The translations under genes and the position numbers were made by a program. This document shows, piece by piece, positions 13,281 through 33,430 of a stretch of 64,000 nt of DNA (positions are counted from its first letter, which is position 1; each line of letters opens with the position of its first letter). Origin of the DNA: an uncultured delta proteobacterium (GTDB lineage: Bacteria > Desulfobacterota > Binatia > UBA9968); NCBI GenBank assembly GCA_963745835.1, contig CAVUZH010000008.1, forward strand, positions 92,835 through 156,834, given 5' to 3'. The notes under the pieces are model-generated. The model saw only the letters and a list, made by a program, of their open reading frames with translations, searched no databases and had not been told where the DNA came from.

Positions 13281-14360
13281 ATGGAATATAGAACAGACGA
13301 TCTACGAATAAAGGAAATAAAGGAGCTACTGCCGCCGGCGCAAGTGCTGCGCGATATCGCGATCACGAGCAAGGCCGCCGAGACAGTATACCGGACGCGC
13401 CAAGCCATTCACCGAATCTTGCACGGTGCTGATGACCGTCTGCTGGTTATCTTGGGCCCATGTTCGATTCATGACGTTAACGCCGCTAAAGAGTATGCCG
13501 GCAAGCTCAGAGAAGTGAAGGAGCGCCTCAGCAGTGATCTACTGCTGGTGATGCGTGTGTATTTCGAGAAACCGCGCACCACCGTCGGTTGGAAGGGGCT
13601 GATCAACGACCCCCAACTTGACGGCAGCTTCCGCATCAACGAAGGCTTGCGTATCAGCCGTCGACTCTTGCTCGATCTTAACGAGATGGCGGTGCCGGCG
13701 GGTTCCGAGTTTCTCGACATGATTACCCCGCAGTATGTCGCTGACCTGGTTTCCTGGGGAGCTATCGGCGCGCGCACGACCGAGAGTCAAGTGCACCGCG
13801 AGCTTGCTTCCGGCCTATCCTGTCCCGTCGGTTTCAAAAACGGCACTGACGGCAACGTCCGCATCGCCGTTGACGCCATCCGCGCCGCGCAAGCTCCGCA
13901 TCATTTTCTCTCCGTAACCAAGGACGGTCATTCGGCGATCGTCTCAACCACCGGCAACGAAGATTGCCATGTCATTCTGCGAGGCGGTCGTAATCCCAAT
14001 TACGATGCAAAAAACATCGATGCAGCGGCGAAGGGTATGGCGGAAGCCGGCATATCGGCGAGAATTATGATCGATTGCAGCCATGGCAACAGCGGCAAAG
14101 AACCGGAAAAGCAGGTCGAGGTCGGTCGTCAGGTTGCCAGCCAAATTGCCGACGGCGATGCCCGGATCTTCGGCGTTATGATCGAAAGCCATCTCAAAGC
14201 AGGCCGTCAAGATCTGATGCCGGGCAAAGAACTCGTCTACGGTTTAAGCATCACAGACGCGTGTGTCGGCTGGGAAGACACCGGCAAATTGGTAGAGGAC
14301 CTCGCACATGCAGTTCGCCAGCGTCGCCTGAAGGCGGCTACTGAGGGCGAAGCGGAGTAG
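13281..14360 (+). CDS. aroG: 3-deoxy-7-phosphoheptulonate (DAHP) synthase, class I alpha (AroG/F/H type)
   Basis: Near-colinear with the E. coli AroG text I remember (DDLRIKEIKELLPP, RVYFEKPRTTVGWKGLINDP, WGAIGARTTESQVHRELASGLSCPVGFKNGTDG). Start moved to ATG 13281 (MEYRTDDLRIKE). The isozyme cannot be assigned. Confidence 0.9.
   Translation: MEYRTDDLRIKEIKELLPPAQVLRDIAITSKAAETVYRTRQAIHRILHGADDRLLVILGPCSIHDVNAAKEYAGKLREVKERLSSDLLLVMRVYFEKPRTTVGWKGLINDPQLDGSFRINEGLRISRRLLLDLNEMAVPAGSEFLDMITPQYVADLVSWGAIGARTTESQVHRELASGLSCPVGFKNGTDGNVRIAVDAIRAAQAPHHFLSVTKDGHSAIVSTTGNEDCHVILRGGRNPNYDAKNIDAAAKGMAEAGISARIMIDCSHGNSGKEPEKQVEVGRQVASQIADGDARIFGVMIESHLKAGRQDLMPGKELVYGLSITDACVGWEDTGKLVEDLAHAVRQRRLKAATEGEAE
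13911..14360 (+). repeat. direct repeat R1, copy a (3' ~150 codons of aroG)
   Basis: Hand alignment to 21421..21868 gives roughly 17 substitutions and two 1-nt indels. The repeat ends exactly at the stop codon. Confidence 0.9.
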
Positions 14361-14857
14361 GGTTAACGCTGGAAGGCCATAGCTGCTTGCAGATCCCCAG
14401 CAAGATCGGACCAACTCTTTAGTTTTCCTTCGGTATCACATTCCCCGGTGTTTCATCCTATGTAGCAATGTCATTGATAATTAATCCGCGAGTGCTTGAT
14501 CTTATCCTGTGACTTGCCCGTCCCACGTTGCCATCCACTCAAATAATTCCGTGCCGATCAATCACGGTTAAATTCCTTAAGATACTCTCAATCCTTTTCA
14601 CTGATGACGTGATTTTCCGCCGTGGAGTATCACTTTGCGATAAGCCGCACATACTTCCTCTTCAGAGAGCAGCCAATCGCATTATTGAGTTTTTTTGGTG
14701 AGGTGAACAAACATATAGCTAAAGTCTGGAATACACAGCCACTGCTTGACATCCACTTCCATTTCGAATAAGTCGCCCCGTCGCAGTTAACAGTTCAACG
14801 GCTCTATGACTGCCCCAGGATTAATCATAATCACTCGATCTGACACCGAGGGCGCCA

Positions 14858-17428
14858 ATGACAAGACAGCTTTGCTTCTGCTTCACTGTTGCGATTTGTG
14901 CCGTTCTTTCGCTTGCTCTTTTCCACCCTGTATCAGCGCAGCAACTCGGGAGAGTCCTCTACGTCAACAAAACTGACAACACCTGCAACGGTCGATCTCC
15001 CTGTCATCCGAAAATTCAGGCGGCGATTGACGTCTCTGCTCCCGGTGACACGATCCGGATACAAGCTGGGACCTATCCCGAACAGCTGAACATTCAAAAG
15101 AATGATTTTGCGAGCGCCGAGGAGGCAAGTCGTATCATCATTGAGGCGGATCCGGAGAGCGCTCCAGGCGCGGTTGTATTGACTGGATCTGCGGGTACCC
15201 AATGTACCAACAAATTTGCCATTCGTATCAGGCGCTCTAAATTCGTTACAATCCGAGGCCTAACGATCACCGGCACCGGCGCTGAAGCGATCTTCATGAT
15301 GGGTGGTGCCAATAGTAATCAGGGCATAAATATCGTCGAAAACCGCATTTACGGCAACGGTAGCAGTTCATGTAATGGTGGCATCACTATCGCTCGGGGA
15401 AACCCGGAGACGCTTATCGTCAACAACCTGATACACGCCAACGGACAAAATGGAATAGCCCTAATCGATGGGGACGGTGGCCCTCACTACATCATCAACA
15501 ACACCGTATACGCCAACCAATGGAACGGTGTCTCCATCGCCTCGGGGAGGGACGTATTTCTTGTCAACAATATTATCAATCAGAACGGTACCGCCTCAGG
15601 TACTAGTGGCGGACGTTTCGGCGTTCAGGTAGAAAGCTGGACCGCACCAACACCCGAGCGCGTTCATCTGCTGAATAACCTGGTTTGCGGAAACCGGCAA
15701 GGAGAGATCTTTGGACAAGCTCTCGATACCACGGATTCCGGCAATCTTTCGCCGCACGGAACCGAGGGCTCGGGCTTTACTCCCAGCGCGGGATGCAACA
15801 ACGCGGACGGTGTGCTGGCCAATGTGAAAGGTCCTGACGGCATCGCAAACACGAGAGACGATGATTATAGGTTATTAAGCGTTTCACCTGCGCTCGATAG
15901 CGGCCTAGACACCCGCACTCTAGGCCTAAGCCCACTCTTTAATCCCATCTTAGAAGGCGACTACTATATAGATCTAACACGCCCTAGAATAGGAAAGCGC
16001 GGAAATCATGCTCAGTTTGATATCGGCGCTCACGAATATATAATCGCCAACCAATCGCCAGTGGCCAACGCCGGCCAAACAGTGACAGTGACATCCGGCA
16101 CGATCGTCAGTCTTAACGGCAGTAGCAGCTTCGATCCCGACGGTGATTCGCTTAGCTATCATTGGGCACAGACCGCGGGTCCCGGCGTGACCATTTCAAA
16201 TCCTACTGCCGCCGGCCCGGTATTGACAGCGCCAACAGTCCAAGGGCTAACGATTTTAACTTTTCAACTCACGGTCAGCGACGGCTTAGTAGATAGCTCG
16301 GCAAGCGTCAACATTACAGTTACCAAACCAAACCAGCCGCCGGTGCTTTCATCTATTGGCGACAGAACAGTAACAGTCGGAAGCACTCTTCAATTCACCG
16401 TCAGCGCCAGCGATCCGGACGATGATCCTTTGATCTACTCCGTTGCGCCTTTACCGGCAAATGCTGCGTTCGATGCCGGCACGCGATTATTCGCATTCAC
16501 GCCGATTGTAAGCCAGGTAGGCTCGTTCAGTCTCACCGTAGCAGCGAGCGACGGCAAAGGAGGGACGGCATCAGAGAGCATCAGGATCACCGTGACGGCT
16601 GGGTTAGCGATCAACATCACGACTCCGACCAATGGCGCGACCGTGCCGTCAGGACAGCTCACCGTGCGTGGATCGATAACGAATCCCACTGGAGGTGAGG
16701 TAGGCGTAACGGTGAATGGGTTTCCGGCGTGGATTCAGGAGAATACGTTCACGGCATTGGTCTCCGTGGCACCTGAGACGACGAGCCTCACAGCGTCTGC
16801 AACTTCTCGGAACGGGGCGACAGCCACCCATATGATAAAGATTGGCCTTTCTGAGTCATCGATTCCCGCTCTTATGCTTCATGCCAGCCCGAATAGTGGT
16901 ACGGCGCCCCTTACGGTTACGTTCTCATTGCTTACTGATTTTCAGACTACGCACGTGAGCTTTGATGCGGACGGCAACGGTGAGATCGACTATAATAGTC
17001 CGCAACTGAACAATCAGATCTTCACTTTTACAGATCCGGGTGTTTACGTTGCTATAGGCACGGCGTTCGATGCTCAAGGGAATCAGTTTGGTGCGGATGC
17101 CATCATTCAAGTTTTCGATTCTTCACAGTTGGATATTATTCTGAAAGCCAAGTGGGTTGCGATGAAAGATGCCTTGCGAGTTGGAAATATCGAGCTGGCG
17201 TTAAATGAGATCGTAGCTCGGTCCCGCTCGCGCTATGAAGAAGCGTTTCAGATAATCGCGACACAACTACCAAACATTGATCAGATACTTCCGAATATCT
17301 CGTTGGTTCGCATTGGGAATCTCTCGGCAGTTTACGAAGCCATTCGTATAGATGATGGTTTGGGAATGTCCTTTGAGGTGCGCTTTGCAATTGATGGAGA
17401 CGGTATTTGGCGAATGGAAACATTCTAA
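14858..17428 (+). CDS. secreted parallel beta-helix protein with Ig/PKD/cadherin-like repeats (856 aa)
   Basis: Signal peptide ...ALFHPVSA|QQ. Beta-helix rungs (IVENRIYGNG, IVNNLIHANGQNGIAL, IINNTVYANQWNGVSI, LVNNIINQNG). DYRL..SPALDSG tail. Ig-like modules (FDPDGDSLSYHW, SASDPDDDPLIYS, APLTVTFS...DADGNGEIDY). Confidence 0.8.
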   Translation: MTRQLCFCFTVAICAVLSLALFHPVSAQQLGRVLYVNKTDNTCNGRSPCHPKIQAAIDVSAPGDTIRIQAGTYPEQLNIQKNDFASAEEASRIIIEADPESAPGAVVLTGSAGTQCTNKFAIRIRRSKFVTIRGLTITGTGAEAIFMMGGANSNQGINIVENRIYGNGSSSCNGGITIARGNPETLIVNNLIHANGQNGIALIDGDGGPHYIINNTVYANQWNGVSIASGRDVFLVNNIINQNGTASGTSGGRFGVQVESWTAPTPERVHLLNNLVCGNRQGEIFGQALDTTDSGNLSPHGTEGSGFTPSAGCNNADGVLANVKGPDGIANTRDDDYRLLSVSPALDSGLDTRTLGLSPLFNPILEGDYYIDLTRPRIGKRGNHAQFDIGAHEYIIANQSPVANAGQTVTVTSGTIVSLNGSSSFDPDGDSLSYHWAQTAGPGVTISNPTAAGPVLTAPTVQGLTILTFQLTVSDGLVDSSASVNITVTKPNQPPVLSSIGDRTVTVGSTLQFTVSASDPDDDPLIYSVAPLPANAAFDAGTRLFAFTPIVSQVGSFSLTVAASDGKGGTASESIRITVTAGLAINITTPTNGATVPSGQLTVRGSITNPTGGEVGVTVNGFPAWIQENTFTALVSVAPETTSLTASATSRNGATATHMIKIGLSESSIPALMLHASPNSGTAPLTVTFSLLTDFQTTHVSFDADGNGEIDYNSPQLNNQIFTFTDPGVYVAIGTAFDAQGNQFGADAIIQVFDSSQLDIILKAKWVAMKDALRVGNIELALNEIVARSRSRYEEAFQIIATQLPNIDQILPNISLVRIGNLSAVYEAIRIDDGLGMSFEVRFAIDGDGIWRMETF

Positions 17429-17440
17429 GGAACACGAAGG

Positions 17441-18067
17441 ATGATGATTTGCACATCGAAAACCGGCAAATTCCTGCAACGCCTAACGAGATGGTGGGCG
17501 GTCGCACTTTTGGTAGTCCTTACATTAAGTTGTCTTGGGGTGACTGAACGTGCAACTGCCGCTGGGCCCTGGAAAGGACAAATTGTCGATAAAGAAACGG
17601 GAAAGCCATTGGAGGGGGTTGTTGTGCTGGCGACTTGGTACAAAGCATACAGCACACACGGCGGGTGGGGTGGTGCTGGGTATCACGATTCGGAAGAAGT
17701 CGTGACGGACACGAACGGTCGATTTACGATTCAGTCAAAACAAACGTGGACGATAAATCCGTTCAGCACCATCAAAGGCCCGGAATTTTACATATTCAAA
17801 CCTGGGTATGGGCAATGGCAGTTTGAAGGTCAGGATCGATGGAGTAAAGACGCGCTGGAAAGTGAAGAACAACGAAAGCAAACATGGCAAAAATTCGTAG
17901 GCGAAGGTGTAACGTTGGAGTTGCCGAGACTGAGTTCGCGTGATGCTAGATTGAAATTTCTTAAAAGACCAGATGGTGAGATCCCATCGGACAGAATGCC
18001 ACAGTACCTCGAAGCACTTGATCAAGAGCGCATAAGCTTAGGTTTAAGACCAGGTTACGTGCAGTAA
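17441..18067 (+). CDS. secreted/anchored protein with CarboxypepD_reg-like fold (208 aa)
   Basis: Starts 12 nt after the upstream stop. N-terminal hydrophobic segment. GQIVDKETGKPLEGVVVLATW...TDTNGRFTI resembles carboxypeptidase regulatory-like beta-sandwich domains. Confidence 0.6.
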   Translation: MMICTSKTGKFLQRLTRWWAVALLVVLTLSCLGVTERATAAGPWKGQIVDKETGKPLEGVVVLATWYKAYSTHGGWGGAGYHDSEEVVTDTNGRFTIQSKQTWTINPFSTIKGPEFYIFKPGYGQWQFEGQDRWSKDALESEEQRKQTWQKFVGEGVTLELPRLSSRDARLKFLKRPDGEIPSDRMPQYLEALDQERISLGLRPGYVQ

Positions 18068-18078
18068 AGGAGTTTAAT

Positions 18079-21000
18079 TTGCGCAACTATAGTCTCGTAG
18101 GTCAACTACTCTCTCTGCTTGTAACTATCCTATTAGGCTGTCCTACTGCACTTGATGCGTATGACATTGGAACTCATCAGCGGATCGCTGAGCGAGCGAC
18201 AGACCAATCGGTCGTAAATACATATCTTCGTGACCAGTTAGATCTTCGAGAGGGAGCAAACGAAATCTTCCTTGGGCGCTCGGTACGGGACTGGATCACT
18301 TTCGGGACTCGATTCGAAGACGAACCTTCAGCTCGTGTCCTAAATCACTTTCACAATCCTTTACAGGCGTGGGGACAGGCAGGTCTCACTCTACCAGTGT
18401 TGGGACAACGCGGCCAGTCTTCCATTTTTTGGGGGCAGAACCCAAATCAAAACCCTGGAGGTAAATGGTCTTGGCTGGATTTGCGAAAGAAGTACGCGGA
18501 AGCGTTGAGCTTGCCGACGAGGTTCAGCCGTGACCGATCCTTTGCAGACCTGTTTCGTGGCCTCGGCCATCTGAGCCACCTGGTGCAAGATGCAACCGTT
18601 CCGGCACATGTGCGGAATGATTCTCATGTGTGCCTGCCGGTTCCTTTTATTAACATCTGTCCACCGATGAATCCTGATTGGTACGAAGATTGGGCTGAAA
18701 GAAGGCGAGATCAGGTAGATGCCTTCATAGCTTTACAACCCATCACACCGGCACACTCAATTTTTACGCCAACAAATGACAGCCAAGCTAGAGTTCCCAT
18801 AGCGCGGCTTGTTGATACTGACAGATTTCAGGACGGAGACTTTTCGATACTCTCCGACGCGAATCTTGGAACTTCAGAATTCACGAGCGGAAATTTCCTT
18901 AGTAGAGACCGTATCTTTAAAGTCTTTACGCTGCCCCGAACTAGTAGCTTAGACTTGGATAATCCAGTGGTTATCCCGGAGGGCATCAGTTTTAGGCGGT
19001 ATTACAGTAAAATTCGAGAGGGAGTCTCAGTGCATCGCTTTATCTCAGAAGGAATGCTTTGGAAAGCATTAGTAACCGCGAGACAAGCGCCGCCTCCATC
19101 TGGTGGTTGGACAATGGACGATCGAGTTCATGCGGATTACGCAAAACTTCTTCTTCCCCGCGCGGTCGGCTATTCAGCAAGCCTGTTCGATTATTTCTTC
19201 CGCGGCAAGCTCAACGTTGACGTGTCAACCGATCCGAACGATATGTCACTAGTGCGGGTTGAGGGAACCAACGGGTCGACGGAGAAACTCGATGGTGGAA
19301 CTCTCGAACTCTACAGCGAAGATATTACCGGAGCACGGATCGCGGCTACACCAGTTGGCACGAATACGGTAACGGCAGATCCGGGCCAGCCGATATCGGC
19401 TACTTTTAGATTGCCAGCCAATAGCGACAAGTTAATGGCGGTTTACAAAGGAAAGCTCGGTGACGAAGCGCCACAAGGTGATTTCCCGGGGGCTATTATC
19501 GGCAAGTCTCTTAGCCCGCAACGTGTTGAGCAAATCTTTTCGGATTCGATCCGTTGGTACATTAGAAATTCCAGCGGCGCGTTTCCGTTGTCACTTTTGA
19601 AATCCGACCTCGACGATCTCCAGTGGGGCGACAGTGGTAACACGCTTGTGGGGCGGAGCCGTATAGGACCAGGGCAGCCGAACTTATTTTACACATACAG
19701 AATCAATCGACTCGTCGGAGCGACGCACATCCCACTCACAGCGAACAATGAGGTGGATATTCACACCATACAGCAGTACTCGTTTCCAATGGGCGTAGGC
19801 ATTGGCACCAACGCACAATTTTCGCATACGTTGCCTTACAAGCAACATCTGTTGTGGAAACAGATTAAGGCCGTTCAAACCTGGGTGCCAACGGAGTTAG
19901 ACAATCCCGCGGCGGGTTCCTATATCTCGGGGCCATCTGAAGTTATGTACGGGATAAGCCTGCTCGTAGACGAAGTTAAGTCCACCAGCTTAAATTACTC
20001 ACTTCTGTTGGACGAAAGTTCGCATGTCTTCGGCACTGGTGCGTCTCAATACAACTGGAACGTCTGGAGTATTCATCTTACGGACGACGGAAGACCTCTG
20101 GCGCTTGTCCAGATTAATCTTACGAGCAACAGTCTTGGAACCGCCACCTTCTCTTCACGGACACTTGGCGGTGGAGGGAATGGAAGTGCCGCGCCGCCGA
20201 TTATTGAATTACCTTCAGTGCAGGTTCCGTTCGGATTGCCAGAACTGGGACCCATCTGGGCTTTGATCGATATAACAACGGGGCAGATTCTAGCCAATAC
20301 GGCTCCGCCGAACGTGGTGATCAACCACACCAACGGGCGAACGGTTTATCATCCGAGCCAGGCGCCGACATATCGAGTATTATCGACAACGCGGTACTTT
20401 GGCGGCCCACAAAATGGCGCAATCGAGCCCTGGACCGCTGCTGACGATTCTATTCCGCCAGTCCATAACCGAAATCAATGTACCGTCGATCGGCTAAATG
20501 CAATGAACGTGGTTGCCAGTCAATCGGTTAGTCCGCCTCATGTTCAAACCCAGTTAACGCAGAACCGTGCCGAAATCGGTCAGCTCGACTTCGGATCCGT
20601 CCCATTTACTTCCGGGAGTGTTCTTAACTTCGCGATCGATTGTGGTGATGCCCTTAGCCCGGCGCAGGGCTTCCGAATTGTTGTAGCTCCTGGGCCGTTG
20701 TTTGCGCCTAACAACATTGGCGAGTTTGGTGCCGGCGTGCTGCGCATTACACCTACGGCCGGAACTGAAAAGCTCGTGTTTCTCATGAGTCAGGCCCAGA
20801 ATGACTCGGTCTCCAGCCAGCGGACGAAGTTGATCGCATGGAATCCAGAGCTGTCTCGTATTGATGCGGTAAAAGAATTTACCGATCAGGGGCTTCACGC
20901 GCTTACGACGGCGAGCCGTGACGCCGCACTGTTTGTCACTATTGGCATCACTAGCAACCAGTCCAGGCTGGTCGATTTTTCGACAGAGAGCGCAACATCA

Positions 21001-21195
21001 GTTTCGAATCAGCTCCTGTTCGACTATTCCTTGTTGGATCCGTCCTATTTGTACAATACGAGCGATTTCAAGTTTCACAGCAAAGACCCCTCTTTGGCTT
21101 CGACCGGCACGCCGGTCAGTTTGGCGCCTGCGCTGAGCGGAAATCCGCGGGGGCGCTATCACCTGCTAAGGATCGGCGGAGGAGCGTTAAACTGA
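18079..21195 (+). CDS. large secreted protein, N-terminal zinc-phospholipase-C/P1-nuclease-like domain plus ~830 aa of unknown function (1038 aa)
   Basis: TTG start 6 nt after AAGGAG and 11 nt after the upstream stop. Signal-like N-terminus. His/Asp pattern THQRIAERA, FEDEPSARVLNHFHNP, LGHLSHLVQDATVPAHVRNDSH. The last 45 codons lie in repeat R2. Confidence 0.7.
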   Translation: MRNYSLVGQLLSLLVTILLGCPTALDAYDIGTHQRIAERATDQSVVNTYLRDQLDLREGANEIFLGRSVRDWITFGTRFEDEPSARVLNHFHNPLQAWGQAGLTLPVLGQRGQSSIFWGQNPNQNPGGKWSWLDLRKKYAEALSLPTRFSRDRSFADLFRGLGHLSHLVQDATVPAHVRNDSHVCLPVPFINICPPMNPDWYEDWAERRRDQVDAFIALQPITPAHSIFTPTNDSQARVPIARLVDTDRFQDGDFSILSDANLGTSEFTSGNFLSRDRIFKVFTLPRTSSLDLDNPVVIPEGISFRRYYSKIREGVSVHRFISEGMLWKALVTARQAPPPSGGWTMDDRVHADYAKLLLPRAVGYSASLFDYFFRGKLNVDVSTDPNDMSLVRVEGTNGSTEKLDGGTLELYSEDITGARIAATPVGTNTVTADPGQPISATFRLPANSDKLMAVYKGKLGDEAPQGDFPGAIIGKSLSPQRVEQIFSDSIRWYIRNSSGAFPLSLLKSDLDDLQWGDSGNTLVGRSRIGPGQPNLFYTYRINRLVGATHIPLTANNEVDIHTIQQYSFPMGVGIGTNAQFSHTLPYKQHLLWKQIKAVQTWVPTELDNPAAGSYISGPSEVMYGISLLVDEVKSTSLNYSLLLDESSHVFGTGASQYNWNVWSIHLTDDGRPLALVQINLTSNSLGTATFSSRTLGGGGNGSAAPPIIELPSVQVPFGLPELGPIWALIDITTGQILANTAPPNVVINHTNGRTVYHPSQAPTYRVLSTTRYFGGPQNGAIEPWTAADDSIPPVHNRNQCTVDRLNAMNVVASQSVSPPHVQTQLTQNRAEIGQLDFGSVPFTSGSVLNFAIDCGDALSPAQGFRIVVAPGPLFAPNNIGEFGAGVLRITPTAGTEKLVFLMSQAQNDSVSSQRTKLIAWNPELSRIDAVKEFTDQGLHALTTASRDAALFVTIGITSNQSRLVDFSTESATSVSNQLLFDYSLLDPSYLYNTSDFKFHSKDPSLASTGTPVSLAPALSGNPRGRYHLLRIGGGALN

Positions 21196-21420
21196 TGCGA
21201 TTAAACACCGGTCTACTCTTGGCGAAATGACGAGCATGAGTGTTTCAGACGGACACCATCCATGGACTAAAAACTTTTCGCATAAACTTTTTTGAAGCAC
21301 CGATCGACGGTCGATATATCGGGATAAGAATCCCATTCAGGCGCCCATGCGAGACATTTTGAACTCCAGAACCGCCTTCAGGTTATGCAGTGTACTCACA
21401 GAGCGCCCAATCATTTGCTG
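21045..21420 (+). repeat. direct repeat R2, copy a
   Basis: Aligns to ~33055..33430. The first ~235 nt are almost identical (a handful of substitutions and one 1-nt indel, clustered at ~21200-21225). The remainder is much more diverged. Confidence 0.85.
21337..21420 (-). pseudogene. 3'-terminal remnant of an MgtC-family gene
   Basis: Minus-strand translation ...MIGRSVSTLHNLKAVLEFKMSRMGA* parallels the C-terminus of the intact gene 33354..34049 (...VQRLVNTLHNMVTVQEFKMSPMGD*). Confidence 0.55.
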
Positions 21421-22330: not shown

Positions 22331-22421
22331 GAATTTTATGGCGGCAACTGGCTGGAGAAAAGATTACGAATTTGACATCGCGGCGGCCCTCCCCTACAAG
22401 GAAACGTATGAAGGAGGCTTT

Positions 22422-24592: not shown

Positions 24593-24652
24593 CCGTATGC
24601 AACCAATGCAACGTAGTCCTGCATAGAGCAGCCAAATACTTCTTTATGCTCC

Positions 24653-24856: not shown

Positions 24857-25002
24857 AAGCCGACCGGCACGGCGGCTTATCTACTTAACAATCGGCGGCT
24901 TATTTCGGCCAGACCATCTTGAAAAGCCGGGCAGGATTGAACTGATCGACGCTTCAATTCAACTGGCTAATTTAATAAGGAGTGGCGCCGTTGATGAGCA
25001 GT

Positions 25003-25410
25003 CTAGAAGCCCCGCTACTCCCTCGCCGCTTCATGGGAATTTATCATCTCGAGATCCGCTGAACTTGGCGTGTCTCAGGTGCATGTCAGGCGTCCATTCG
25101 GTAAACTCGATCTGCGCCACTAGCTGCGGTTTTAGCCAGACAGTTCTTCATTTCTTGGCGGGTGAGCGAAAACTGCGTGGGTTTTTTCTACGGTAGGTTA
25201 GCGAAACGGGCAATTGGTGATCTCCAATCGTTTCAACGTTTGCCAGACTTCCCGACGCACTCGCGGCACGAAGCCGATTCTGACCTTAGCTGCATAGATT
25301 AGCTTATCACCGTCGCAGTAGCCGACGATCACTGCATACAGCGGATTGGCCGTCGTATATCCGCCGATGACAAATTCCTGTGACTTGTTGACCTTGTATT
25401 TCAGCCATGC
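25003..25410 (-). pseudogene. degenerate extra copy of the 3' third of an ATP-dependent DNA ligase gene
   Basis: Minus-strand text AWLKYKVNKSQEFVIGGYTTANPLYAVIVGYCDGDKLIYAAKVRIGFVPRVRREVWQ... carries stops and frameshifts. At nucleotide level it is clearly related to 27216..27630. Confidence 0.6.
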
Positions 25411-25574
25411 GCTGCTTCGCTTGCCGATGTCGGTCAGAATTGACGCTCCCTTTCACAAGCGGCTTATGCTGAATTCTGCTTGGGAGGGTGTTTAGTTTGA
25501 CAGCGGCCCTTTCCCTAAGATAGGAACAGTCTTCGTTGGTAGAAAAAGAAAGAAGGAACACGAGTGGAGTTATC

Positions 25575-26603
25575 ATGTTAAATGGCAGGTTTTTTGTTAT
25601 TGCGATCCTCGCCTTGCTAATCAGCACTTCGCACGTGAATGGTACTACAGCTGCTTCTATAGACGAACTCGTCGCCGCCGCCAAAAAGGAAGGACGTCTG
25701 AGTTTCTACGCTCCATCGACGTTGACTCCAGCAGGTGCAAAAGAACTAGCGGCTGCGTTTAACGCAAAGTTTAATACAAGCATAGACGTTACATATTTTC
25801 CCTCCGGCAGCATGACTGCCGATGTTGGTAGGCTTGTTTCTCATGCCGCCACAGGCGTCCCCCCAGAATGGGATCTCTTAATCATTATAGACGCGCTCCA
25901 CGGTCCATTGTGGCAAAAAAAGCTCCATGTCCAATATGATTATCGAGCACTCGGTGTAGATGCCAGGACGATTCATTATGATAACGGCACGATTTCAATC
26001 GCTAACCAAGTCGTGTTACCAGCATACAATCCAAAGACCTTATCTGAGAAGGAGGCACCCAAAAGGTGGGAGGATCTGCTTGACCCAAAATGGAAAGGCA
26101 AGATTGGAGTTCCTACCGCCTCCGGTCAGATCGATTTTCTCGCGATTTTATGGGGTGAGAAGAAATTCCTAAATTTTGTACATGCGCTTGCCAAGCAGGA
26201 ACCCTTACCAGGCAAACTGGCCGAACTTGCTACGCGACTTGAGATTGGTGAGCTGCTAGTGGCATCAACTCTCACCGACAGCTTCATTCACCGGGCCAAA
26301 CGAACTGGCAGTCCGATCGTGCATGCCCAGGTTCAGCCGGTTATCTCCCCGGCATATCATGCAGGGGTGCTCAAAGGCGCACCTCATCCGAATGCGGCAC
26401 ATCTGTTCGCAGTATTTCTGACAACTTTGGAGGCCCAAAAACTCTGGGAAAAGTACGGCGGTCAGAGTTCGGCATTCATTCCGGGAACAGCAACGCACAG
26501 TTATGTCCAAGGAAAGTCGGTCATATACTTATCTCAGAAAGATGTTGGACTGGTGAATAAGATGGTGGCGGAAATCGGCAAAACGCTTGGTTTTCGTCCA
26601 TAG
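25575..26603 (+). CDS. ABC transporter substrate-binding protein (Fe3+/family-1-like), orphan
   Basis: Signal peptide. Paralogous text to the SBP at 51491..52594 (AKKEGRLSFYAPS versus AKKEGMLRGQW; LDPKWKGKIGVPTA versus LNPKWKGKIASTPYA). Confidence 0.8.
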   Translation: MLNGRFFVIAILALLISTSHVNGTTAASIDELVAAAKKEGRLSFYAPSTLTPAGAKELAAAFNAKFNTSIDVTYFPSGSMTADVGRLVSHAATGVPPEWDLLIIIDALHGPLWQKKLHVQYDYRALGVDARTIHYDNGTISIANQVVLPAYNPKTLSEKEAPKRWEDLLDPKWKGKIGVPTASGQIDFLAILWGEKKFLNFVHALAKQEPLPGKLAELATRLEIGELLVASTLTDSFIHRAKRTGSPIVHAQVQPVISPAYHAGVLKGAPHPNAAHLFAVFLTTLEAQKLWEKYGGQSSAFIPGTATHSYVQGKSVIYLSQKDVGLVNKMVAEIGKTLGFRP

Positions 26604-26666
26604 CGCACGCACCATATCGCGTGAATGGTAACGCGGACGTCGGTACAAAAAAGAAAGGAGATTCAA

Positions 26667-27080
26667 ATGGCAAAAAAGACACTCAATCCGGAGGGGATGC
26701 CGGTTCCGCGCGGCAGCTACTCTCAAGTGGTTATTTCTAAGCCTGGTCGCGTAGTGTTTATTGCAGGAAATACTGCCAGCGATCCCAGCGGCAACGTAAC
26801 TGGACTTGCCGACGTGCGCGCTCAGACGCGTTATATTCTTGAAAAGATCAAGATGGGAGTTGAAGCAGCAGGCGGAACAGTAGAAGACATTGTTTGCATG
26901 AATGTGTTTTCAACGGACGCACGGTATCATTCGCAAATAAACGAAGTCCGCAAAGAATTTCTCGGACGTGATTTCCCAACGAGCACCATGGTTCAGGTCG
27001 TGGCACTTGCCCGTCCGGAGTTGCTACTTGAAATCAATGCAATTGCGGTCGTACCCGAATCGGCTGTCAAGGACAATTGA
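26667..27080 (+). CDS. RidA/YjgF/L-PSP-family protein
   Basis: ATG follows AAAGGAG. Family text: GSYSQVV...VFIAGNTA...VRAQTRYILEKIK...LLEINAIAV. Confidence 0.85.
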   Translation: MAKKTLNPEGMPVPRGSYSQVVISKPGRVVFIAGNTASDPSGNVTGLADVRAQTRYILEKIKMGVEAAGGTVEDIVCMNVFSTDARYHSQINEVRKEFLGRDFPTSTMVQVVALARPELLLEINAIAVVPESAVKDN

Positions 27081-27215
27081 AGCGAACCCAGGGAACAGCT
27101 TGCCGAATGTAAGGTGTAAAAAGTACCGGTTCAGTACTTCTCAATGATTACGTTACAAGATTGAACCGTAAATGCTCACTTTAAGTGGGCCGAAGTGGCA
27201 TCATTGAGGAGCAGT

Positions 27216-27630
27216 CTAGAACCGTGACCCCTCCCGGACAACTTCACGCGGGTTTTTATCATCCCGCAATCCAACGAACTTCGAGTGCCGCAGGTGTCCA
27301 TCCGGTGTCCACTCGGTGAACTCGATCTGCGCGACCAGCTCGCGGCTTTAGCCAAACGCAGTTCTTCATTTCTTCACGGGTGAGCGAAAACTGCGTGCGT
27401 TTCTTCTCTGGCAGGTTAGCGAATGGGCAACTGGCGATCTCCAATCCTTTCAGCTTCTGCCAAACTTCACGGCGCAATCGTGGCACAAAGCCGTTTCTCA
27501 CCTTGCCAGCGTAGATCAACTTATCACCGTCGTAATAGCCGACGATCAGCGCATCGAGCGGATTGCCGGGCGTGTAACCGCCGATGACGAACTCCTGTGA
27601 TTTGTTGACCTTGTACTTGATCCTCTGTTT
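27216..27630 (-). pseudogene. ATP-dependent DNA ligase, C-terminal (OB-fold) part, frameshifted
   Basis: IKYKVNKSQEFVIGGYTPGNPLDALIVGYYDGDKLIYAGKVRNGFVPRLRREVWQKLKGLEIASCPFANLPEKK..., then in other frames ...HLRHSKFVGLRDDKNPREVVREGSRF*. Confidence 0.7.
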
Positions 27631-27900
27631 GGCCGTTCACTCACGATCACTCTGAACCAAAACGGGGTGAATATCACGATATTCACACGAGTGCGGAAGC
27701 GCAGTCACCTGCATCTGTCGCCAGCGGTTTAATCGTCAGACCTTTCAAAAATGTAATCTTTCGGAAGGCTTCCAGCAACGTTGTTTTGTTAGTTTACGGC
27801 CTAGTCGAGATAGCTCCCGATATTTGCGGGCACATTACGAACCGCCAGCGACGCGGCAAATATGCTCGACCCTGAGTTTTAGGTTATCAAAGATTCTAAA

Positions 27901-28665
27901 TTGGACGCAATTAAAGTGGCGATCTTTCGAGGCATCGATAGTCCAACATTCGCAACTTCCGGGTTTGTCTTATCCATCCGCCGTTTCCGCCGATATTTGC
28001 CGCTGCTCGTGGGGGTGATTATTCTTGTTGGGCTGCGACCGCGGTCATGGCAAGATGAATTTTTGAATAGTCTGACTACTTGGATCGGCATTGCATTCTG
28101 TGCCCTCGGGCAAGGATGGCGGTTATGGGCATGGGGGAGCAATGCCAATGCCGGAAAGCGCGCAGTTCGCAGTCGCGGTCCCTATGCTCTGATGCGTCAT
28201 CCGCTTTATACCGGGAATTTTTTTATTCTCCTGGGCGTTACGGTGAGCTTCAACAATCCCTGGGCCTATTTACTTTTGCTAGTTCCGTTTGCGTATCTTT
28301 ACCATCTCATCACCAACCTTGATGAACGACGGATGAGTGAACGTGTTGGCGTTGCCTATAAGACCTATACGGAGGAAACTCTGTCGCGATTTCTACCGCA
28401 ATTTAGGAATCTCAAGCGGGCCAACCGTACGACAGTGCCGTTCAATTTTCTGTACGCATGGCGCAAGGAATACAACTCCATCTGCGCATGGCTGGCGGGT
28501 GTCCCAACGCTCGGAATATATCGTGATGCCGTGACTTACGGCTGGGAGCAAGCATTATATGAAAACCCAATTTCGTTGGGTGTCAGCGGGTTTTGTGGCG
28601 CTCTTGCGATTCTACTGAATGTGCGAAGGCACATCGGTCGAAAAAAACGATTACTGAAGCATTAG
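27901..28665 (+). CDS. isoprenylcysteine carboxyl / phospholipid methyltransferase-family membrane protein
   Basis: RGPYALMRHPLYTGNFFILLGV...LITNLDERRMSERVGVAYKTY matches the ICMT/PEMT family signature. The start (TTG 27901) is uncertain. Confidence 0.7.
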   Translation: MDAIKVAIFRGIDSPTFATSGFVLSIRRFRRYLPLLVGVIILVGLRPRSWQDEFLNSLTTWIGIAFCALGQGWRLWAWGSNANAGKRAVRSRGPYALMRHPLYTGNFFILLGVTVSFNNPWAYLLLLVPFAYLYHLITNLDERRMSERVGVAYKTYTEETLSRFLPQFRNLKRANRTTVPFNFLYAWRKEYNSICAWLAGVPTLGIYRDAVTYGWEQALYENPISLGVSGFCGALAILLNVRRHIGRKKRLLKH

Positions 28666-28678
28666 AAAGAACCGACAA

Positions 28679-29267
28679 TGCGCCACTGCGCTTTCCCGAT
28701 TCGTAGCAGGAGTCTTTACGCTTGGCGATCACTCCCTCAAAGCCAAACTCTTTGACGACTTGGATCAGTTCGGCAGGCGTTGCGTCGATGCTCTCGGATA
28801 ACGCAATTGACGATGCGTTTCGGGTGAGCGGTTTCATTATGTCGCTCAGCACTTCACGTCGTTTCGAAAGTGGTTCGTTGAGCAGATTGATCCCGCGATA
28901 AATCAGGACATCAAACGCATAAAACAACAATGCTTGTGCTTGCGACCGATGATGTTGAAGCAGGTTGAACGAGATACGCCCGTTCTCGTCAATGGCTACG
29001 ATTTCGCCGTCGAGCAGTGTGCGCGGCGGGAGCTGTTCACATGCTTTGGCGATGTTCGGGAACTGCGCCGTGAAGTCATTGCCGCGCCGAGACCACAACG
29101 TCACTCCTGTGGCGTCTTTGCCAGCCAAACAGCGATAGCCGTCGAATTTGACTTCATAGAGCCAGTCGTTGCCATTCGGGTAGCTGCTGGACGAGCTGCG
29201 CGTACATCGGTTCGACGAACTGAATCGTAGCCGCTCTCGCAGCGGAGTTGGACTTTGCTTTTGGCAT
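28679..29267 (-). pseudogene. ATP-dependent DNA ligase, N-terminal adenylation part, one frameshift near 29180
   Basis: MPKAKSNSAARAATIQFVEPMYAQLVQQLP, then a frame change, then GNDWLYEVKFDGYRCLA (KxDG motif) ... EGVIAKRKDSCYESGKRSGA. Colinearity ends at ~28679. Confidence 0.7.
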
Positions 29268-29279
29268 TTCGCGGGAGGG

Positions 29280-29429
29280 TTACGACGTGAAAAGCGCCCA
29301 GGCGATTTCGTAGCCGCAGATGGCGCAGCGCCCGTGGATCGGCTGGTAGCCACTATCGCTTGGCTTTGCGATGACTACCCCAAAGTAGTTGCCGCATTTG
29401 GGGCAGTTTCTGGCGAGGTAAACGGCCAT
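29280..29429 (-). CDS. possible 49-aa zinc-ribbon protein upstream of the ligase
   Basis: MAVYLARNCPKCGNYFGVVIAKPSDSGYQPIHGRCAICGYEIAWALFTS has two CxxC pairs. Its TAA lies 12 nt before the ligase ATG. Below the track cutoff. Confidence 0.4.
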   Translation of the reverse strand: MAVYLARNCPKCGNYFGVVIAKPSDSGYQPIHGRCAICGYEIAWALFTS

Positions 29430-30089
29430 GTAAGTACAAGTTTAACTCTGCTGGCGGTTTCTCTCAACCTGAAGTCAAACCGGAAGCTCTTTGAGCATTT
29501 AGTCAGGGTTCTGACTTGGTGTTCGAGTTTACATTCCCATTACCAAGCCGTTCGACAAGAAGCGGTAGACCCGCCAACCACGCTGTGAAGAGGACAAGGT
29601 TTTTGCTAAGCTTCTTGGCTATGAATTTCTTTAAAACAAAAGTCTCCGTTATTTACGCAATCATCCCTGCGATAGGTTGGGTCTTAACGTTTCTTTCGGT
29701 ATGGGTGTTTTCTGGGAACGAACAAAAATAGATTTAGTGAATTTAGTAAATCGCGGGACGGCTGGGGTGAAGCTTTACGCAGAAAAAGGCGCGGCGGCGC
29801 TTGAAGATTTATCCCGCCCTGAAGTAGCTAAGAGGTTCCGCTGACCGAGTTTGGCAAGCAAAGATGGATGGCTTGAATGCCATCGAAAAACGCATAGCTC
29901 AAGTAGAAGGCCGAAAGGCAGTCATGTACGGCAGACCGAATCGGTCTCTGTTAAGATGAACCGACGCACTACCTGCAATGCGCGATCCTGAAAGATCCAC
30001 TGGAGAGCGTAATATTTTCACCTTCACCGTATCCGGCAAGCAGATTAATGACGCATATTGCCTTTCATTTCAATGTATTATTACCGGCT

Positions 30090-30269
30090 CTAACTTTTTT
30101 TCCACGCTCTGTATTGTCTGCAATCACGTCGGAAAAGTTCGCTCAACATTCGTTGCATTGTGGAAAAAGCATTGATGACTTCGAGAGTCGCTTTTTGCTT
30201 ATCCAAATAACTTTGCGACCCACAGTATCCAAGCATACAACAAAAACAGCTCATAATTTTAGTAAACAT
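30090..30269 (-). CDS. possible 59-aa Cys-rich small protein
   Basis: ATG sits 6 nt after AGGAGG. Translation is MFTKIMSCFCCMLGYCGSQSYLDKQKATLEVINAFSTMQRMLSELFRRDCRQYRAWKKS. Below the track cutoff. Confidence 0.3.
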   Translation of the reverse strand: MFTKIMSCFCCMLGYCGSQSYLDKQKATLEVINAFSTMQRMLSELFRRDCRQYRAWKKS

Positions 30270-31324
30270 AGTAACCTCCTAACAGAGCCCATGCTTTTGC
30301 AGAAGGTGAGTTTGAAACGCAAGCGGTTCGGCAAGGTGGTGGAGATAAATCATTTGAGAAAAACTGCGACGGCGTATGGTATACGCGAGACGTAAGCCCG
30401 GAGGATAATAGTGCCCAACGAAGCCGCCTTTTCACTCGAATACCTCTGCTGAGATGCGAATTTCTCACGATTGATCAAATATTTTCCAGTTTCCCAGAAC
30501 CTAAAACTGCGCTGGACATACGCATTCTGGCGTACGCCAGAATATCAACGGAAAATGAAAGTGCAACAAGCGAAAGGTGCATCCGAAAGTGCTCTCGACA
30601 CGATCCGGAATCATGGAGATACGAACAGGCCTTGATTTATAAAAAAAGAAAGGCGAGGGCTCATTACAGAGAAGTATATACGCAAAGCCCATAGCCTGTT
30701 TGTACCGGTTCACTCAGTTTCACGTTTGGAATTGATGATAATGATAAAAGCTGGGAAACAGGAACGAATGGCTATTCGCCGTATTCTCAACCGATAAAGG
30801 ATTAGCCATAGTTCGCGCGGAAATCGAGAAGGAGGAAAAGAGAAACGCCGAGAAGCACGAAAGCATTGGCTCCATTGGCCGTAGCGGCGTTTATCTGACG
30901 GTATGATCTGTATATCATCGGCTTCTTCTTCGTATTAGACAAATAACGTCGCGCAACGTCAATGTCTCAATAATCCCGTACAGGTCTTAAGATTATGGTT
31001 TCGCGTGGGCCGGTTGCGATAAGATTTGTCTAGTAACAAAAAAGAGCGCATACATATTGCTTATGGATCTCGGTCTGATACTCAGCATCGCCTCACTTCT
31101 AAAGACATCATTGTCTTCGCCTACCCGCTTTATAAAAAAATCTAATTTTGGCAATCGCATCCAAGTTGGCGTTCATGTTTAATCAACGCCACAACAAAAA
31201 AGCCCGTCGCGGGGCGATTTTGTTCTCGAATAGATGTTTTATATTCTAGTCGGCCAATTCCACTCGCATGGACCATCGCCTTGCTTGAGAGCTGGCTGAA
31301 TAATGAGCCTTTGTCGGTGAAGAC

Positions 31325-31582
31325 GTGATGAATCAAATGCAACGAAAGCTCTTTCTTATTTTTTTCTTGGTGTTGGCAGTCTTGGTCGGGAGTCTGACCG
31401 CAATAATTTCATATCTAATCTATCGAGGTGATTTAGTGAGGTACGGAGATATCTTTGATCGTATCGCTTTGGAGCAAATACAGGGCGGGGGTAAGCTAGC
31501 CGTTTTTATGATCTTTGGAATTACTCTGATGGCAATTCTGGTGATCATCGGTCTCTGGAAATTCTATGGGGGTGACGCGTGA
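31325..31582 (+). CDS. hypothetical two-TM small membrane protein (85 aa)
   Basis: Two clear hydrophobic spans. Lies in the AT-rich orphan region. Confidence 0.3.
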   Translation: MMNQMQRKLFLIFFLVLAVLVGSLTAIISYLIYRGDLVRYGDIFDRIALEQIQGGGKLAVFMIFGITLMAILVIIGLWKFYGGDA

Positions 31583-32095
31583 AACGCGTGTTAAGAATAA
31601 GCGGGTGAAGTAGGGCGACAAGATCATATGCTTGCGATCAGACACCTTCGTGTACGTCCTAATGGGCGCCTAACAATAGTAATTTCGGTTCTCGGCAGTC
31701 GCTCAGCAGAGAAAACCATCGTTTTCGCACCCTCTTTGATAGCATGACTGGGCATTAAGGTTAGTCTTCTGCGTGCGTCTTGATATGCTGCCTGACTATT
31801 ACATAATAAATATGTTTGAGCTCCAACACCAGCCAGCTCACTTCACAGGAATCGTCACACGGCACTTTACACATGCCCGTTCCGGCCACTCACCATCACA
31901 CCCACGGCCACCAATCACAGGCCGTCCTATCAGGCTAGTATGCGCACGGCCGTATCGTTAAAATGTTCGGAACAAGTATGGTTGGTTGCTGACCGGCGAG
32001 TGACAGTTTTTGCTACGTAGCGACATTCGTCAAGTTCGGAAATTCAAGATTTACTTCAGGCTACTGTATTCTAGGCAAGGGGAGAAATCCGGGAG

Positions 32096-32398
32096 ATGTC
32101 CGACGTTACCATTCGAATCGTAGATCTCGATTACGCCGATCAACAGATGCAGTCTGGGAAGTGGACTTTAGTATCCCTGCGGAAAGGTGAACAGCATTTC
32201 TCATTTCCATCGCCAACCAGGTATACCGGACTTTACAAGCCGCTGTATTCGTTTAAGCCAGGTCCAGACCAGGTTTCTCGGCGATTTAACGTCTTCATTT
32301 TTGCGCGGAATGTGGCACTTTACACAAAATATTCGACTACGGCGTATCGCTACTGGATGGACAGTTGCAGTACGCGTAGTAGCGTCCTTCTACGATAA
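32096..32398 (+). CDS. hypothetical protein (100 aa)
   Basis: ATG preceded by GGGAG. No recognisable motif. Confidence 0.3.
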   Translation: MSDVTIRIVDLDYADQQMQSGKWTLVSLRKGEQHFSFPSPTRYTGLYKPLYSFKPGPDQVSRRFNVFIFARNVALYTKYSTTAYRYWMDSCSTRSSVLLR

Positions 32399-32528
32399 GC
32401 GAAATCGGAATAGTGCTTGAAGACATAGATCGCGCCTCACCAAAGGATATAATTAAGGCGAGGTATTAAGGCGACGAAAAATTGAAAGACTTAAATTAGA
32501 GTCGTATAACAGTCGCACAACCTGCATT

Positions 32529-32957
32529 ATGCGACCATACTCGAATCGAGGTAGTGGGATGGCCTTTACTATCGACCAAATTAAGACATACCGCCGTTGG
32601 TTTGGATGGGGGTTTGTCGGATCATTTTTAGTGTTCGCGATTCTATTAGCTGTTGCGCTGATGCCGGCGGCTCCTAGTGGTTATACTCTACCTGATGATA
32701 ATAGGATGTCGCCACCGCTTAAGGCCGAGATGGTGCTGGCACTTGGCTTCTTTGTAACTTCTCTTACAACGCTTATCGGATTCGTAATTACCACGATTAT
32801 TATGTGGCGCAAAGAACCGATAAAGAGTAACCACGCGAGTATTGAGTTGGAGAAAAAGCAACCAGCGCTTGACAAACTTCGTCGAGAGATCGCCGATAAA
32901 AACGCCGCTGCTCAAGAAAAAAGGAAGAAAACGACTAAGCCAAAGCGCGTCGTTTAA
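32529..32957 (+). CDS. hypothetical two-TM protein with Lys-rich coiled C-terminus (142 aa)
   Basis: Two hydrophobic spans, then ELEKKQPALDKLRREIADKNAAAQEKRKKTTKPKR. The start could be the internal ATG (MAFTIDQ). Confidence 0.4.
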   Translation: MRPYSNRGSGMAFTIDQIKTYRRWFGWGFVGSFLVFAILLAVALMPAAPSGYTLPDDNRMSPPLKAEMVLALGFFVTSLTTLIGFVITTIIMWRKEPIKSNHASIELEKKQPALDKLRREIADKNAAAQEKRKKTTKPKRVV

Positions 32958-33054
32958 TCTTCCCACGCCGGTCACCGGAGGTGCTGAACTACGGCCACAG
33001 GGACTCCCAACTCGGTTTACCGGGTTTTCCCGTCCTAAAACAACGATTTTGATC

Positions 33055-33430
33055 GTTTGCTTACAATCGAGCGATTTCAAGTTTCACAGCAAAGACCCCT
33101 CTTTGGCTTCGACCGGCACGCCGGTCAGTTTGGCGCCTGCGCTGAGCGGAAATCCGCGGGGGCGCTATCACCTGCTAAGGATCGGCGGAGGAGCGTTAAA
33201 CTGATGCGGTTAAACACCGGCCTCCCTCTTTGCGAAATGACGAGCATGAGTGTTTCAGACGGACACCATCCATGGACTAAAAACTTTTCGCATAATGCCC
33301 TCTTTTCGAAGCAACGATCGAGAAGAGCCGACATGCCGAAATAAGGATCCCAATCAATCGCCCATGGGCGACATTTTGAACTCCTGAACCGTGACCATGT
33401 TATGCAGCGTATTCACCAAGCGCTGCACAT
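33055..33430 (+). repeat. direct repeat R2, copy b
   Basis: See 21045..21420. It contains an orphan copy of the last 45 codons of the 1038-aa gene (33070-33204) and overlaps the 3' end of intact mgtC. Confidence 0.85.

Follow-up and report, generated by a model that had tools for sequence, protein, structure and literature searches.

How can the 3' ends of two neighbouring genes be present twice on one bacterial chromosome, once within the intact genes and once as stubs joined to each other in the space between them? This question is raised by a stretch of 64,000 nucleotides (nt) from an uncultured delta proteobacterium (assembly GCA_963745835.1, contig CAVUZH010000008.1, positions 92,835 to 156,834), hereafter called the window. 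Here the space between aroG, encoding a class-I DAHP synthase, and the convergent gene mgtC contains a three-gene operon, a joint formed by an mgtC stub and an aroG stub (aroG'), and a set of cargo genes. Two repeat pairs are chained in the order R1, R2, R1', R2' (i.e. start ... end, start' ... end'), where R1 is the 3' end of functional aroG, R2 the operon end with the mgtC stub, R1' the aroG stub and R2' an operon remnant with the end of intact mgtC. The organism is an uncultured soil bacterium, and the window is ordinary chromosome with a GC content of ~52.6%. Our data suggest that this arrangement goes back to one old illegitimate joint combined with a homologous exchange, followed by gene conversion and cargo turnover. 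We consider this course of events very probable; it is common to two readings of the locus, i.e. a tandem duplication within the chromosome and import of DNA from a related strain.

The two long repeat pairs described in the original prediction were reproduced by repeat finding, by gapped self-BLAST of the window and by global alignment. The alignment of R1 and R1' spans 469 columns; it shows 21 mismatches, and R1' has two 1-nt deletions (at 21427/8 and 21793/4), giving 95.1% identity (BLAST E = 0). As proposed before, R1 runs to the TAG stop codon of aroG, past which the likeness to R1' persists for at most ~8 nt; its start lies ~20 nt earlier than assumed, at 13892. Over the range considered at first (13911-14360), the alignment gives 16 substitutions and two 1-nt indels, close to the earlier hand count of ~17 and two. 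The frameshift that had been placed at ~21794 in R1' is indeed found at 21793/4, but it is specific to the window, being absent from the relatives L001, L002 and L027, and may have arisen by recent mutation or through a mistake in the assembly. In the second pair, the first 235 columns of R2 and R2', comprising the last 45 codons of the third operon gene (1038 amino acids, aa) and ~100 nt of spacer, contain four mismatches and two gaps (97.4% identity), without a single substitution in the 134 coding nt. The remaining 128 columns, which hold the mgtC 3' end, are 71.9% identical with gaps (78% ungapped). Both this step in identity and the minus-strand mgtC end in the two copies, which in R2' belongs to the intact gene, had thus been read correctly.

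R2 and R1' overlap by 5 nt at 21402-21406. The parent sequences at this point are ...caccAAGCGCtgca in mgtC and ...gcgcAAGCTCcgca in aroG, and the product is ...CAGAGCGCC followed by CAATC..., with a microhomology of 5-7 nt. The abutment of an mgtC-like and an aroG remnant had therefore been recognized, although the joint is located ~15 nt further left than the ~21420 first given. It is not the mgtC'-aroG' fusion it had been called: the stubs lie head-to-head on opposite strands, so that no fused reading frame exists at the joint. A point in the downstream gene is joined here to a point in the upstream gene, which is the signature of a tandem-duplication join point.

We compared the window with 28 related loci (L001-L028), which were collected by exact-protein look-ups, one genome scan and one metagenome scan. 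The latter, a scan of JGI metagenomes with a 20-mer of the aroG 3' end, yielded six contigs, too few for population frequencies of the locus states; exact look-ups of the mgtC and 1038-aa proteins of the window found no matching record. The identical joint (mgtC stub followed by aroG' from 13892) was found in the window and in L001, L002, L005, L017, L027 and L028, with 88-99% identity across the joint among the carriers. The joint-bearing assemblies derive from samples ERZ25039531, -494, -532, -550, -504 and ERZ27274783, and the contig names suggest that both long-read and MEGAHIT short-read assemblies are among them. The presence of the joint in seven assemblies from several samples shows that it is neither an assembly artefact nor recent. 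This also answers the concern of the original prediction that the contig might be chimeric, i.e. that two strain haplotypes had been chained. It is true that every sequence stems from a metagenome assembly and that different strain variants of the cargo are found side by side within one project. However, non-homologous sequences joined via only 5 nt are not bridgeable by assembler overlap, the repeat copies differ by 5-28%, and the joint was assembled independently in the window and in six further contigs, from six samples; the probability of an artefact is therefore negligible.

Two other types of joint were found in the relatives. In L003 and L016, the spacer stops at ...TTTTTTGAAGCAAC and is followed by aroG' from 14141, and in L004 it stops at ...GAAGCAACG and is followed by aroG' from 13943; left of its joint, L004 contains the right end of the cargo and the operon remnant. 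In both types, the spacer ends at the same base, ...GAAGCAAC(G) or ...GCAACG (L003 13173-13176, L016 13034-13037, L004 4076-4079), directly 5' of the GATCG (GATC/CGATCG) with which it continues in the unbroken copies. These variant joints may have come about by deletion of the decayed edges or independently of the first joint; that their common end reflects repeated capture of defined DNA ends, e.g. restriction-cut or nicked ones, is conceivable but improbable. The loop of a hairpin was also considered as the left end of the variant joints and rejected, as only the hairpin in R2' of the window is significant (z = -2.2) and it is not conserved in relatives.

How old is the joint, and why do its repeats change so abruptly in identity? 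The joint-bearing lineages are now 6-9% apart in the MFS-BrkB-aroG core. When the window is compared with L005, four sites (13895, 13910, 13982 and 14042) group R1 with R1 and R1' with R1', and the duplication is therefore older than the split of these two lineages. Seven sites, mostly at 14306-14342, are common to R1 and R1' within a genome and differ between the window and L005. Over the last 100 nt, paralogue identity is 97-99% vs an orthologue identity of 91-93%. In the window, R1' and R1 are 87% identical over the first 109 nt, i.e. on the joint side, and 97-98% identical over the remaining 360 nt. The 134 nt of the operon remnant, too, are free of substitutions relative to the operon 3' end. 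These patterns indicate that the inner parts of both repeat pairs have been homogenized by gene conversion, and that the joint-side edges, with homology missing on one side, stayed unconverted. Conversion of the inner parts and neutral drift of the edges explain the step in identity, and the later gene-conversion tract envisaged in the original prediction agrees with the clustering of concerted-evolution sites in the inner parts of the repeats.

The mgtC stubs have diverged to 72% (window vs L005) and 75% (window vs L017), compared with 94% for the 3' ends of functional mgtC, and can be used as a neutral clock. The stub of the window is nearest to the mgtC genes of its own clade (80-83% identity, vs 71-77% to the outgroups L019 and L006); therefore, it stems from this clade and has drifted freely. 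Part of the identity on the functional side of R2 is due to constraint, since the 1038-aa gene shows unusual conservation among lineages over its final ~200 nt (97% for window vs L005, compared with 73-87% just upstream); the remnant itself is free of this constraint. R1' retains some states that are also found in L021 and L006, where R1 has others; these could simply be ancestral.

As the original prediction had suggested, the aroG and mgtC neighbourhoods of related genomes proved informative, revealing the aroG-mgtC adjacency in a sister lineage (L006-L015), the operon-mgtC adjacency (L019) and the shared joint. Five arrangements occur among the relatives, i.e. empty site, operon next to mgtC, cargo only, both, and no mgtC. 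The empty site is seen in L006 (a 284-kb contig with ~80% nucleotide identity) and in eight short contigs, with the gene order S9 peptidase, mgtC, convergent aroG, BrkB, MFS; 132 nt separate the stop codons of aroG and mgtC there. The operon stands beside intact mgtC in L019, which is collinear with window positions 19103-21209 and then with 33061-36432, the switch falling exactly at the start of R2'. A distant relative, L018 (44% protein identity), carries the three-gene operon in an unrelated context, and the operon is therefore a module that arrived at the aroG-mgtC site. Cargo without the operon is found in L021, where intact aroG is followed by the first ~50 nt of F-left (the stretch after R1' in the window) and then by a SnoaL gene that is also part of the L017 cargo. 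For L001, L002, L005, L016, L017, L027 and L028, the comparison covered the aroG, operon and cargo part of the locus. L026, a more remote relative (~78% identity), lacks mgtC, and its aroG converges directly on the S9 peptidase gene (1353-1574); mgtC may thus itself be an earlier arrival at the site.

Since R2 and R2' both contain the operon 3' end, the spacer and the mgtC 3' end, the operon adjoined mgtC before the joint was formed. This bears on the idea that a small tandem duplication (~700 nt) of the empty site came first and that operon and cargo were inserted separately into the two spacers. Such a duplication would be easy to form, given an empty site only 132 nt wide, but the segment of operon, spacer and mgtC that is common to both repeats effectively refutes it. 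In addition, L019 has the operon beside intact mgtC, and no contig with the small duplication alone was found among the loci, all of which makes this order of events very unlikely.

We would put the chances at about even that the joint arose by tandem duplication within the chromosome, of a segment that starts in mid-aroG, includes the operon and ends in the 3' part of mgtC. In this scenario, aroG and mgtC would ancestrally have been ~130 nt apart, and a three-gene operon for surface or secreted proteins would then have come between them. Illegitimate recombination at CAAGC would have linked a point ~100 nt inside the mgtC 3' end to a point 469 nt before the aroG stop codon, giving two tandem copies of the unit aroG 3' end, operon, mgtC 3' end, for which unequal exchange between sister chromosomes would be the simplest route. 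The operon of copy 2, now redundant, would have been replaced by other genes, from ~8 nt past the aroG' stop to 45 codons before the operon end. Thereafter, RecA-type conversion from the functional copies would repeatedly have overwritten the inner part of aroG' and the operon remnant, while ~100 nt on either side of the joint, at the edge of homology, would have drifted neutrally. The cargo of copy 2 would have kept changing between strains via homologous exchange and further insertions. Both the order of these events and the intrachromosomal origin are what we infer from the arrangements described above.

Several observations fit this scenario. Copy 2 has lost a1, i.e. the spacer between aroG and the operon, and all but 45 operon codons; the left break of the remnant is common to L004, so that the loss of the operon from copy 2 is old too. 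The original prediction had both copies lose or exchange their content, which applies to copy 2 only, as aroG, operon and mgtC stub in copy 1 represent the ancestral interval. Furthermore, an internal duplication needs no prior loss and regain of the operon, and the mgtC stub looks endogenous to the clade. Other observations weigh against it. The likeness of R1 and R1' stops ~8 nt past the stop codon; if copy 2 was at first an exact copy, the replacement would have started right at the end of a pseudogene that was no longer in need of protection, which is an unexplained coincidence. The first ~50 nt after R1' directly follow intact aroG in L021, so that the sequence after R1' could represent what natively lay downstream of aroG in a recipient strain. 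None of the loci examined provided a contig with aroG, operon and intact mgtC and no duplication. Finally, the joint shared by L003 and L016 is incongruent with the core-gene tree, in which L016 is the sister of L005 (96.2%), and the history of the locus must have included additional events or exchange between lineages.

Alternatively, a recipient with aroG, the F sequence, an operon remnant and mgtC may have regained the operon on a fragment of a related strain that extended from mid-aroG to ~100 nt into mgtC, which we regard as possible but do not favour. Either the fragment was circularized and entered by a single homologous crossover in aroG (Campbell type), or homologous recombination in aroG took place at one end only, with an illegitimate join at CAAGC at the other (homology-facilitated illegitimate recombination). 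Topologically, the outcome would be identical to that of a tandem duplication, with R1 coming from the donor and R1' being the recipient's own aroG end. Import would account for the end of the R1/R1' likeness ~8 nt past the stop codon and for the unrelated sequences downstream, and intact aroG with the first ~50 nt of F-left in L021 would be the recipient-type arrangement; L021 could equally be a derivative of recombination between R1 and R1'. That DNA is exchanged between lineages at this locus is clear from the mosaic identity of L027 to the window (99.2% over 19115-27359, 93.6% upstream), from a foreign allele at 17413-19114 with 52-54% identity, from the joint that L016 shares with L003 in disagreement with its core-tree position, and from strains 99% identical to the window in which other cargo begins at 22185 or 22334. 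Gene 3'-end stubs accompanied by cargo are also a recurring pattern inside the cargo, i.e. in the ligase stubs and in the ABC_sub_bind stubs of the window and L002. On the other hand, the mgtC stub is nearest to the clade's own mgtC, so the donor must be a close relative, and R1 bears no positive mark of foreign origin. Import also requires that the recipient lost the operon before regaining it, and no circular form or transfer machinery was seen. The relatives thus support the two origins offered in the original prediction, duplication or Campbell-type insertion, without separating the two mechanisms.

Elements that target gene 3' ends leave the 3' end duplicated on the far side of the insert, e.g. 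phage e14 in icd. The stub of aroG beyond the inserted DNA of the window recalls this situation, and a classical island might have been integrated site-specifically into the aroG 3' end, bringing a replacement aroG end with it. However, Pfam scans of the operon, most longer cargo open reading frames (ORFs) and ~30 flanking ORFs found no integrase or transposase (shorter ORFs and the region 29.6-32.5 kb were scanned in part), and the window contains no tRNA, no Rfam family and no short att-like core repeat, the flanking repeats being gene ends of 355-469 nt. Moreover, what would be the other end of the element belongs to the adjacent gene mgtC, each of the three junction types has its own entry point into aroG', and the GC content is not distinctive. 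Neither a conserved recombinase beside the operon in relatives nor a core sequence common to all joints was seen. Such an origin is extremely unlikely, in line with the original view that this is not a classical genomic island. An integron cassette array was rejected as well, with no integrase, no attC and a sole hairpin (33300-33327, z = -2.2) that is not conserved in relatives.

Considering that operon-only (L019), cargo-only (L021) and combined (window-type) contigs are all seen, it is tempting to speculate that the chained repeats serve as handles, maintained by conversion, with which housekeeping recombination switches between the three states, i.e. as an integrase-free cassette-exchange site. 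We consider this improbable, even though L004 may be an excised or amplified cargo unit. The chained repeat structure performs no function of its own. The positions of all features are given in Table 1.

Table 1. Features of the aroG-mgtC region in the window, in order of position
Feature	Position	Strand	Evidence or remarks
aroG, intact class-I DAHP synthase, 359 aa	13281-14360	+	Pfam DAHP_synth_1, E = 2.7e-93
R1, last 469 nt of aroG, functional copy	13892-14360	+	Repeat finding, self-BLAST, global alignment
a1, spacer between aroG stop and operon	14361-14857	+	Conserved with operon in relatives; unrelated to sequence after R1'
Operon gene 1, 856-aa beta-helix/PKD/Ig-domain protein	14858-17428	+	Pfam; homologues
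Operon gene 2, 208 aa, weak CarboxypepD_reg-like signal	17441-18067	+	Pfam
Operon gene 3, 1038 aa, putative lipobox (LLGC), Zn-phospholipase-C-like N-terminal domain, beta-rich domains	18079-21195	+	
R2: last 45 codons of gene 3 (21052-21195), spacer (21196-~21311), mgtC 3'-end stub on minus strand (~21312-21406)	21052-21406		
J, novel join point, mgtC-internal vs aroG-internal	21402-21406		Microhomology CAAGC(G/T)C; BLAST overlap, alignments
R1', aroG 3'-end pseudogene stub, two 1-nt deletions	21402-21868	+	Self-BLAST, alignments
F-left, 317 nt, conserved after R1' in all duplication-bearing relatives	21869-22185		
ABC_sub_bind (PF04392) 3'-end stub	22193-22339	-	74-77% to L002, L005, L016 and L017 genes
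Rieske oxygenase ORF, 417 aa (447 aa in L027)	22236-23489	+	Pfam; comparison with L027
NMT1-like binding-protein gene, three ORFs	23541-24592	+	Five indels vs intact 334-aa gene of L027
ATP-dependent DNA ligase C-terminal stub, copy A	24981-25401	-	79% to 27194-27618; reading-frame translation
Solute-binding protein (355 aa) and RidA/L-PSP (151 aa), both intact	25536-27080	+	Pfam
ATP-dependent DNA ligase, interrupted	27194-29566	-	Pfam DNA_ligase_A_M, DNA_ligase_A_C
Low-GC (44-47%) stretch, no recognizable genes	29567-32510		
142-aa membrane protein	32529-32957	+	Conserved and intact in L003 and L004
R2': remnant of last 45 codons of gene 3 (33062-33195), spacer (33196-33353), intact mgtC 3' end	33062-33423		
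mgtC, intact, 231 aa	33354-34049	-	Pfam MgtC, E = 3.2e-40
S9 prolyl oligopeptidase, core gene bordering the variable region	34157-36085	-	Pfam; synteny in L003, L006, L019 and L020

It is reasonable to assume that the operon encodes secreted or surface proteins. Its upstream spacer a1 also follows aroG in L025. The 1038-aa protein had no Pfam hit above threshold (Zn_dep_PLPC, E = 0.22, 11.9 bits vs a cut-off of 26.8) and no match in the PDB by sequence. In an AlphaFold model built with 29 homologues (pLDDT 84.9), a head domain is followed by propeller-like beta-rich domains. The N-terminal domain matched 1kho, 1ca1 and 2ffz (clostridial alpha-toxin, B. cereus PC-PLC) with a Foldseek probability of 1.0 and a TM score of 0.43 on the target for 2ffz, and H167, D171 and H177, a His/Asp motif of the metal-ligand type, are invariant in the 29 homologues. 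The predicted N-terminus thus resembles the zinc-dependent phospholipase C fold. The family has more than 500 homologues, is uncharacterized and lacks a Pfam model.

The segment 17413-19114, comprising the 208-aa gene and the first ~345 codons of the 1038-aa gene, shows only 52-54% nucleotide identity to L001, L003, L005, L016, L017, L027 and L028, which are 75-91% alike mutually in this segment; the flanks are 85-99% identical and the edges at 17412 and 19115 are sharp. It resembles an allelic replacement by a distant homologue, and L002 is the only relative to share it. In L001 (~98% identical strain), a transposase-like gene (HTH_28/HTH_29) interrupts operon gene 1, and behind it lies another copy of the 3' part of the PKD gene that has diverged (75%); the whole occupies 13048-17273.

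The cargo between R1' and R2' is not the 11-kb decayed filler that it had been taken for, as its gene set is shared with relatives and only partly broken in the window. In L027, which is 99.2% identical to the window in this part, intact genes were called for the Rieske oxygenase (447 aa), the NMT1-type binding protein (334 aa), a second binding protein, RidA and the ATP-dependent DNA ligase. Twelve indels distinguish the two sequences (including 19418, 21793 and 23365-24229), five of them in the NMT1 gene, which is broken in the window, one in the 1038-aa gene, which is broken in L027, and one in the Rieske gene. The indels in the Rieske and NMT1 genes represent either true decay or assembly error, and some apparent pseudogenes in these assemblies may be sequencing errors. 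The ligase gene of the window is split by ~1.06 kb (27619-28677) with an ICMT/PEMT-like ORF (27901-28665, plus strand); it is contiguous (331 aa) in L003. Ligase stubs at 24981-25401 and 27194-27618, in direct orientation on the minus strand and 79% identical, bracket the genes for the solute-binding protein and RidA, a nested pattern of gene 3'-end stub plus cargo like that of aroG and aroG'. The low-GC stretch had no match in plasmid or phage collections and no likeness to the cargo of relatives, and the two of its ORFs that were scanned contained no Pfam domain.

Even among strains 98-99% identical to the window, the cargo diverges after 22185 (L001) or 22334 (L002), and that of L003 measures only ~6 kb. 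In L017, aroG' is split by an insertion of ~4 kb (4389-8425) with a ligase fragment and the SnoaL gene, and the cargo holds an internal mgtC fragment (11679-11781) equivalent to window positions 33564-33665. Insertion sequence (IS) elements were found in L001, L004 and L005.

Outside the variable region, aroG, whose protein is identical in L001 and L002, is preceded by SufBD-type and Crp-type genes and by genes for a two-component kinase, a fatty-acid desaturase, MFS and BrkB. The S9 peptidase gene that follows mgtC is succeeded by genes for a Tle1-like lipase, an FMN dehydrogenase, an Opp-type transporter, RNase G and SMC. Two side observations concern these flanks. In the window, a 5.1-kb segment (2197-7350) encodes a PAS histidine kinase and a protein of the CheB-CheR fusion type; L001 and L028 lack this segment and join 2196 directly to 7351. 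Furthermore, two tandem paralogous MFS transporter genes (46609-47688 and 47860-48932) share 66% DNA identity, the first being seemingly split into shorter ORFs.

Taken together, the locus is a natural case, in uncultured soil bacteria, of a long-lived duplication joint at which gene conversion keeps useless stubs near-identical to their functional copies while the joint-side edges drift, and it illustrates how the space between convergent core genes gains and swaps cargo without mobile-element genes. A consequence of the structure is that either arrangement, operon-only or cargo-only, can be deleted or re-created through the two repeat pairs. There is also a lesson for annotation, as the 'DAHP synthase' ORFs of 137-161 aa that were called in these genomes represent mere stubs of a pseudogene. 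The by-product of greatest use is a conserved three-gene surface-protein module with a large putative lipoprotein, the modelled head of which is phospholipase-C-like, and with a sharp allelic replacement in this strain.

Each of these processes has a counterpart in known systems. Spontaneous duplications in bacteria are documented to have, as a rule, joints with 0-5 bp of identity, as in the cat amplicons of Acinetobacter baylyi (PMC9997567). Like these, the window has the order unit, joint, unit, with one novel joint at ~5 nt, no mobile-element genes and repeats that are substrates for RecA. In contrast to laboratory duplications, which are young, identical and unstable, its duplication is old, spans lineages 6-9% apart and has one copy emptied to the repeat ends. 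Campbell-type or homology-facilitated integration, with one homologous exchange and one microhomology joint, would also produce the order seen here, including a displaced gene 3' end, but no donor, circle or vector is identifiable and the stubs look endogenous to the clade. As in concerted evolution, stubs are 97-100% identical to the functional copy in the same genome, orthologous stubs or edges are 10-28% diverged, and genome-specific substitutions are common to the repeats. Usually concerted evolution concerns multicopy genes, whereas the partners here are non-functional stubs of 134-360 nt with unconverted edges against the joint.

Hotspots of horizontal gene transfer without mobile elements, in which turnover proceeds via recombination in the flanking core genes, have also been described (Oliveira et al. 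2017, PMC5635113). The aroG-mgtC interval matches this class as a hotspot of gene turnover, without mobile-element genes in the window: gene content varies between the same core genes (aroG on one side, mgtC and the S9 peptidase on the other) even at 99% identity, integrases are lacking, and the mosaic identity points to homologous exchange. Unlike the described hotspots, it contains an internal duplication scar that provides extra recombination handles, and IS elements occur only in some relatives (L001, L004 and L005). Rather than a new kind of element, the locus is a well-preserved case of known processes, i.e. an illegitimate duplication joint, concerted evolution and an integrase-free hotspot.

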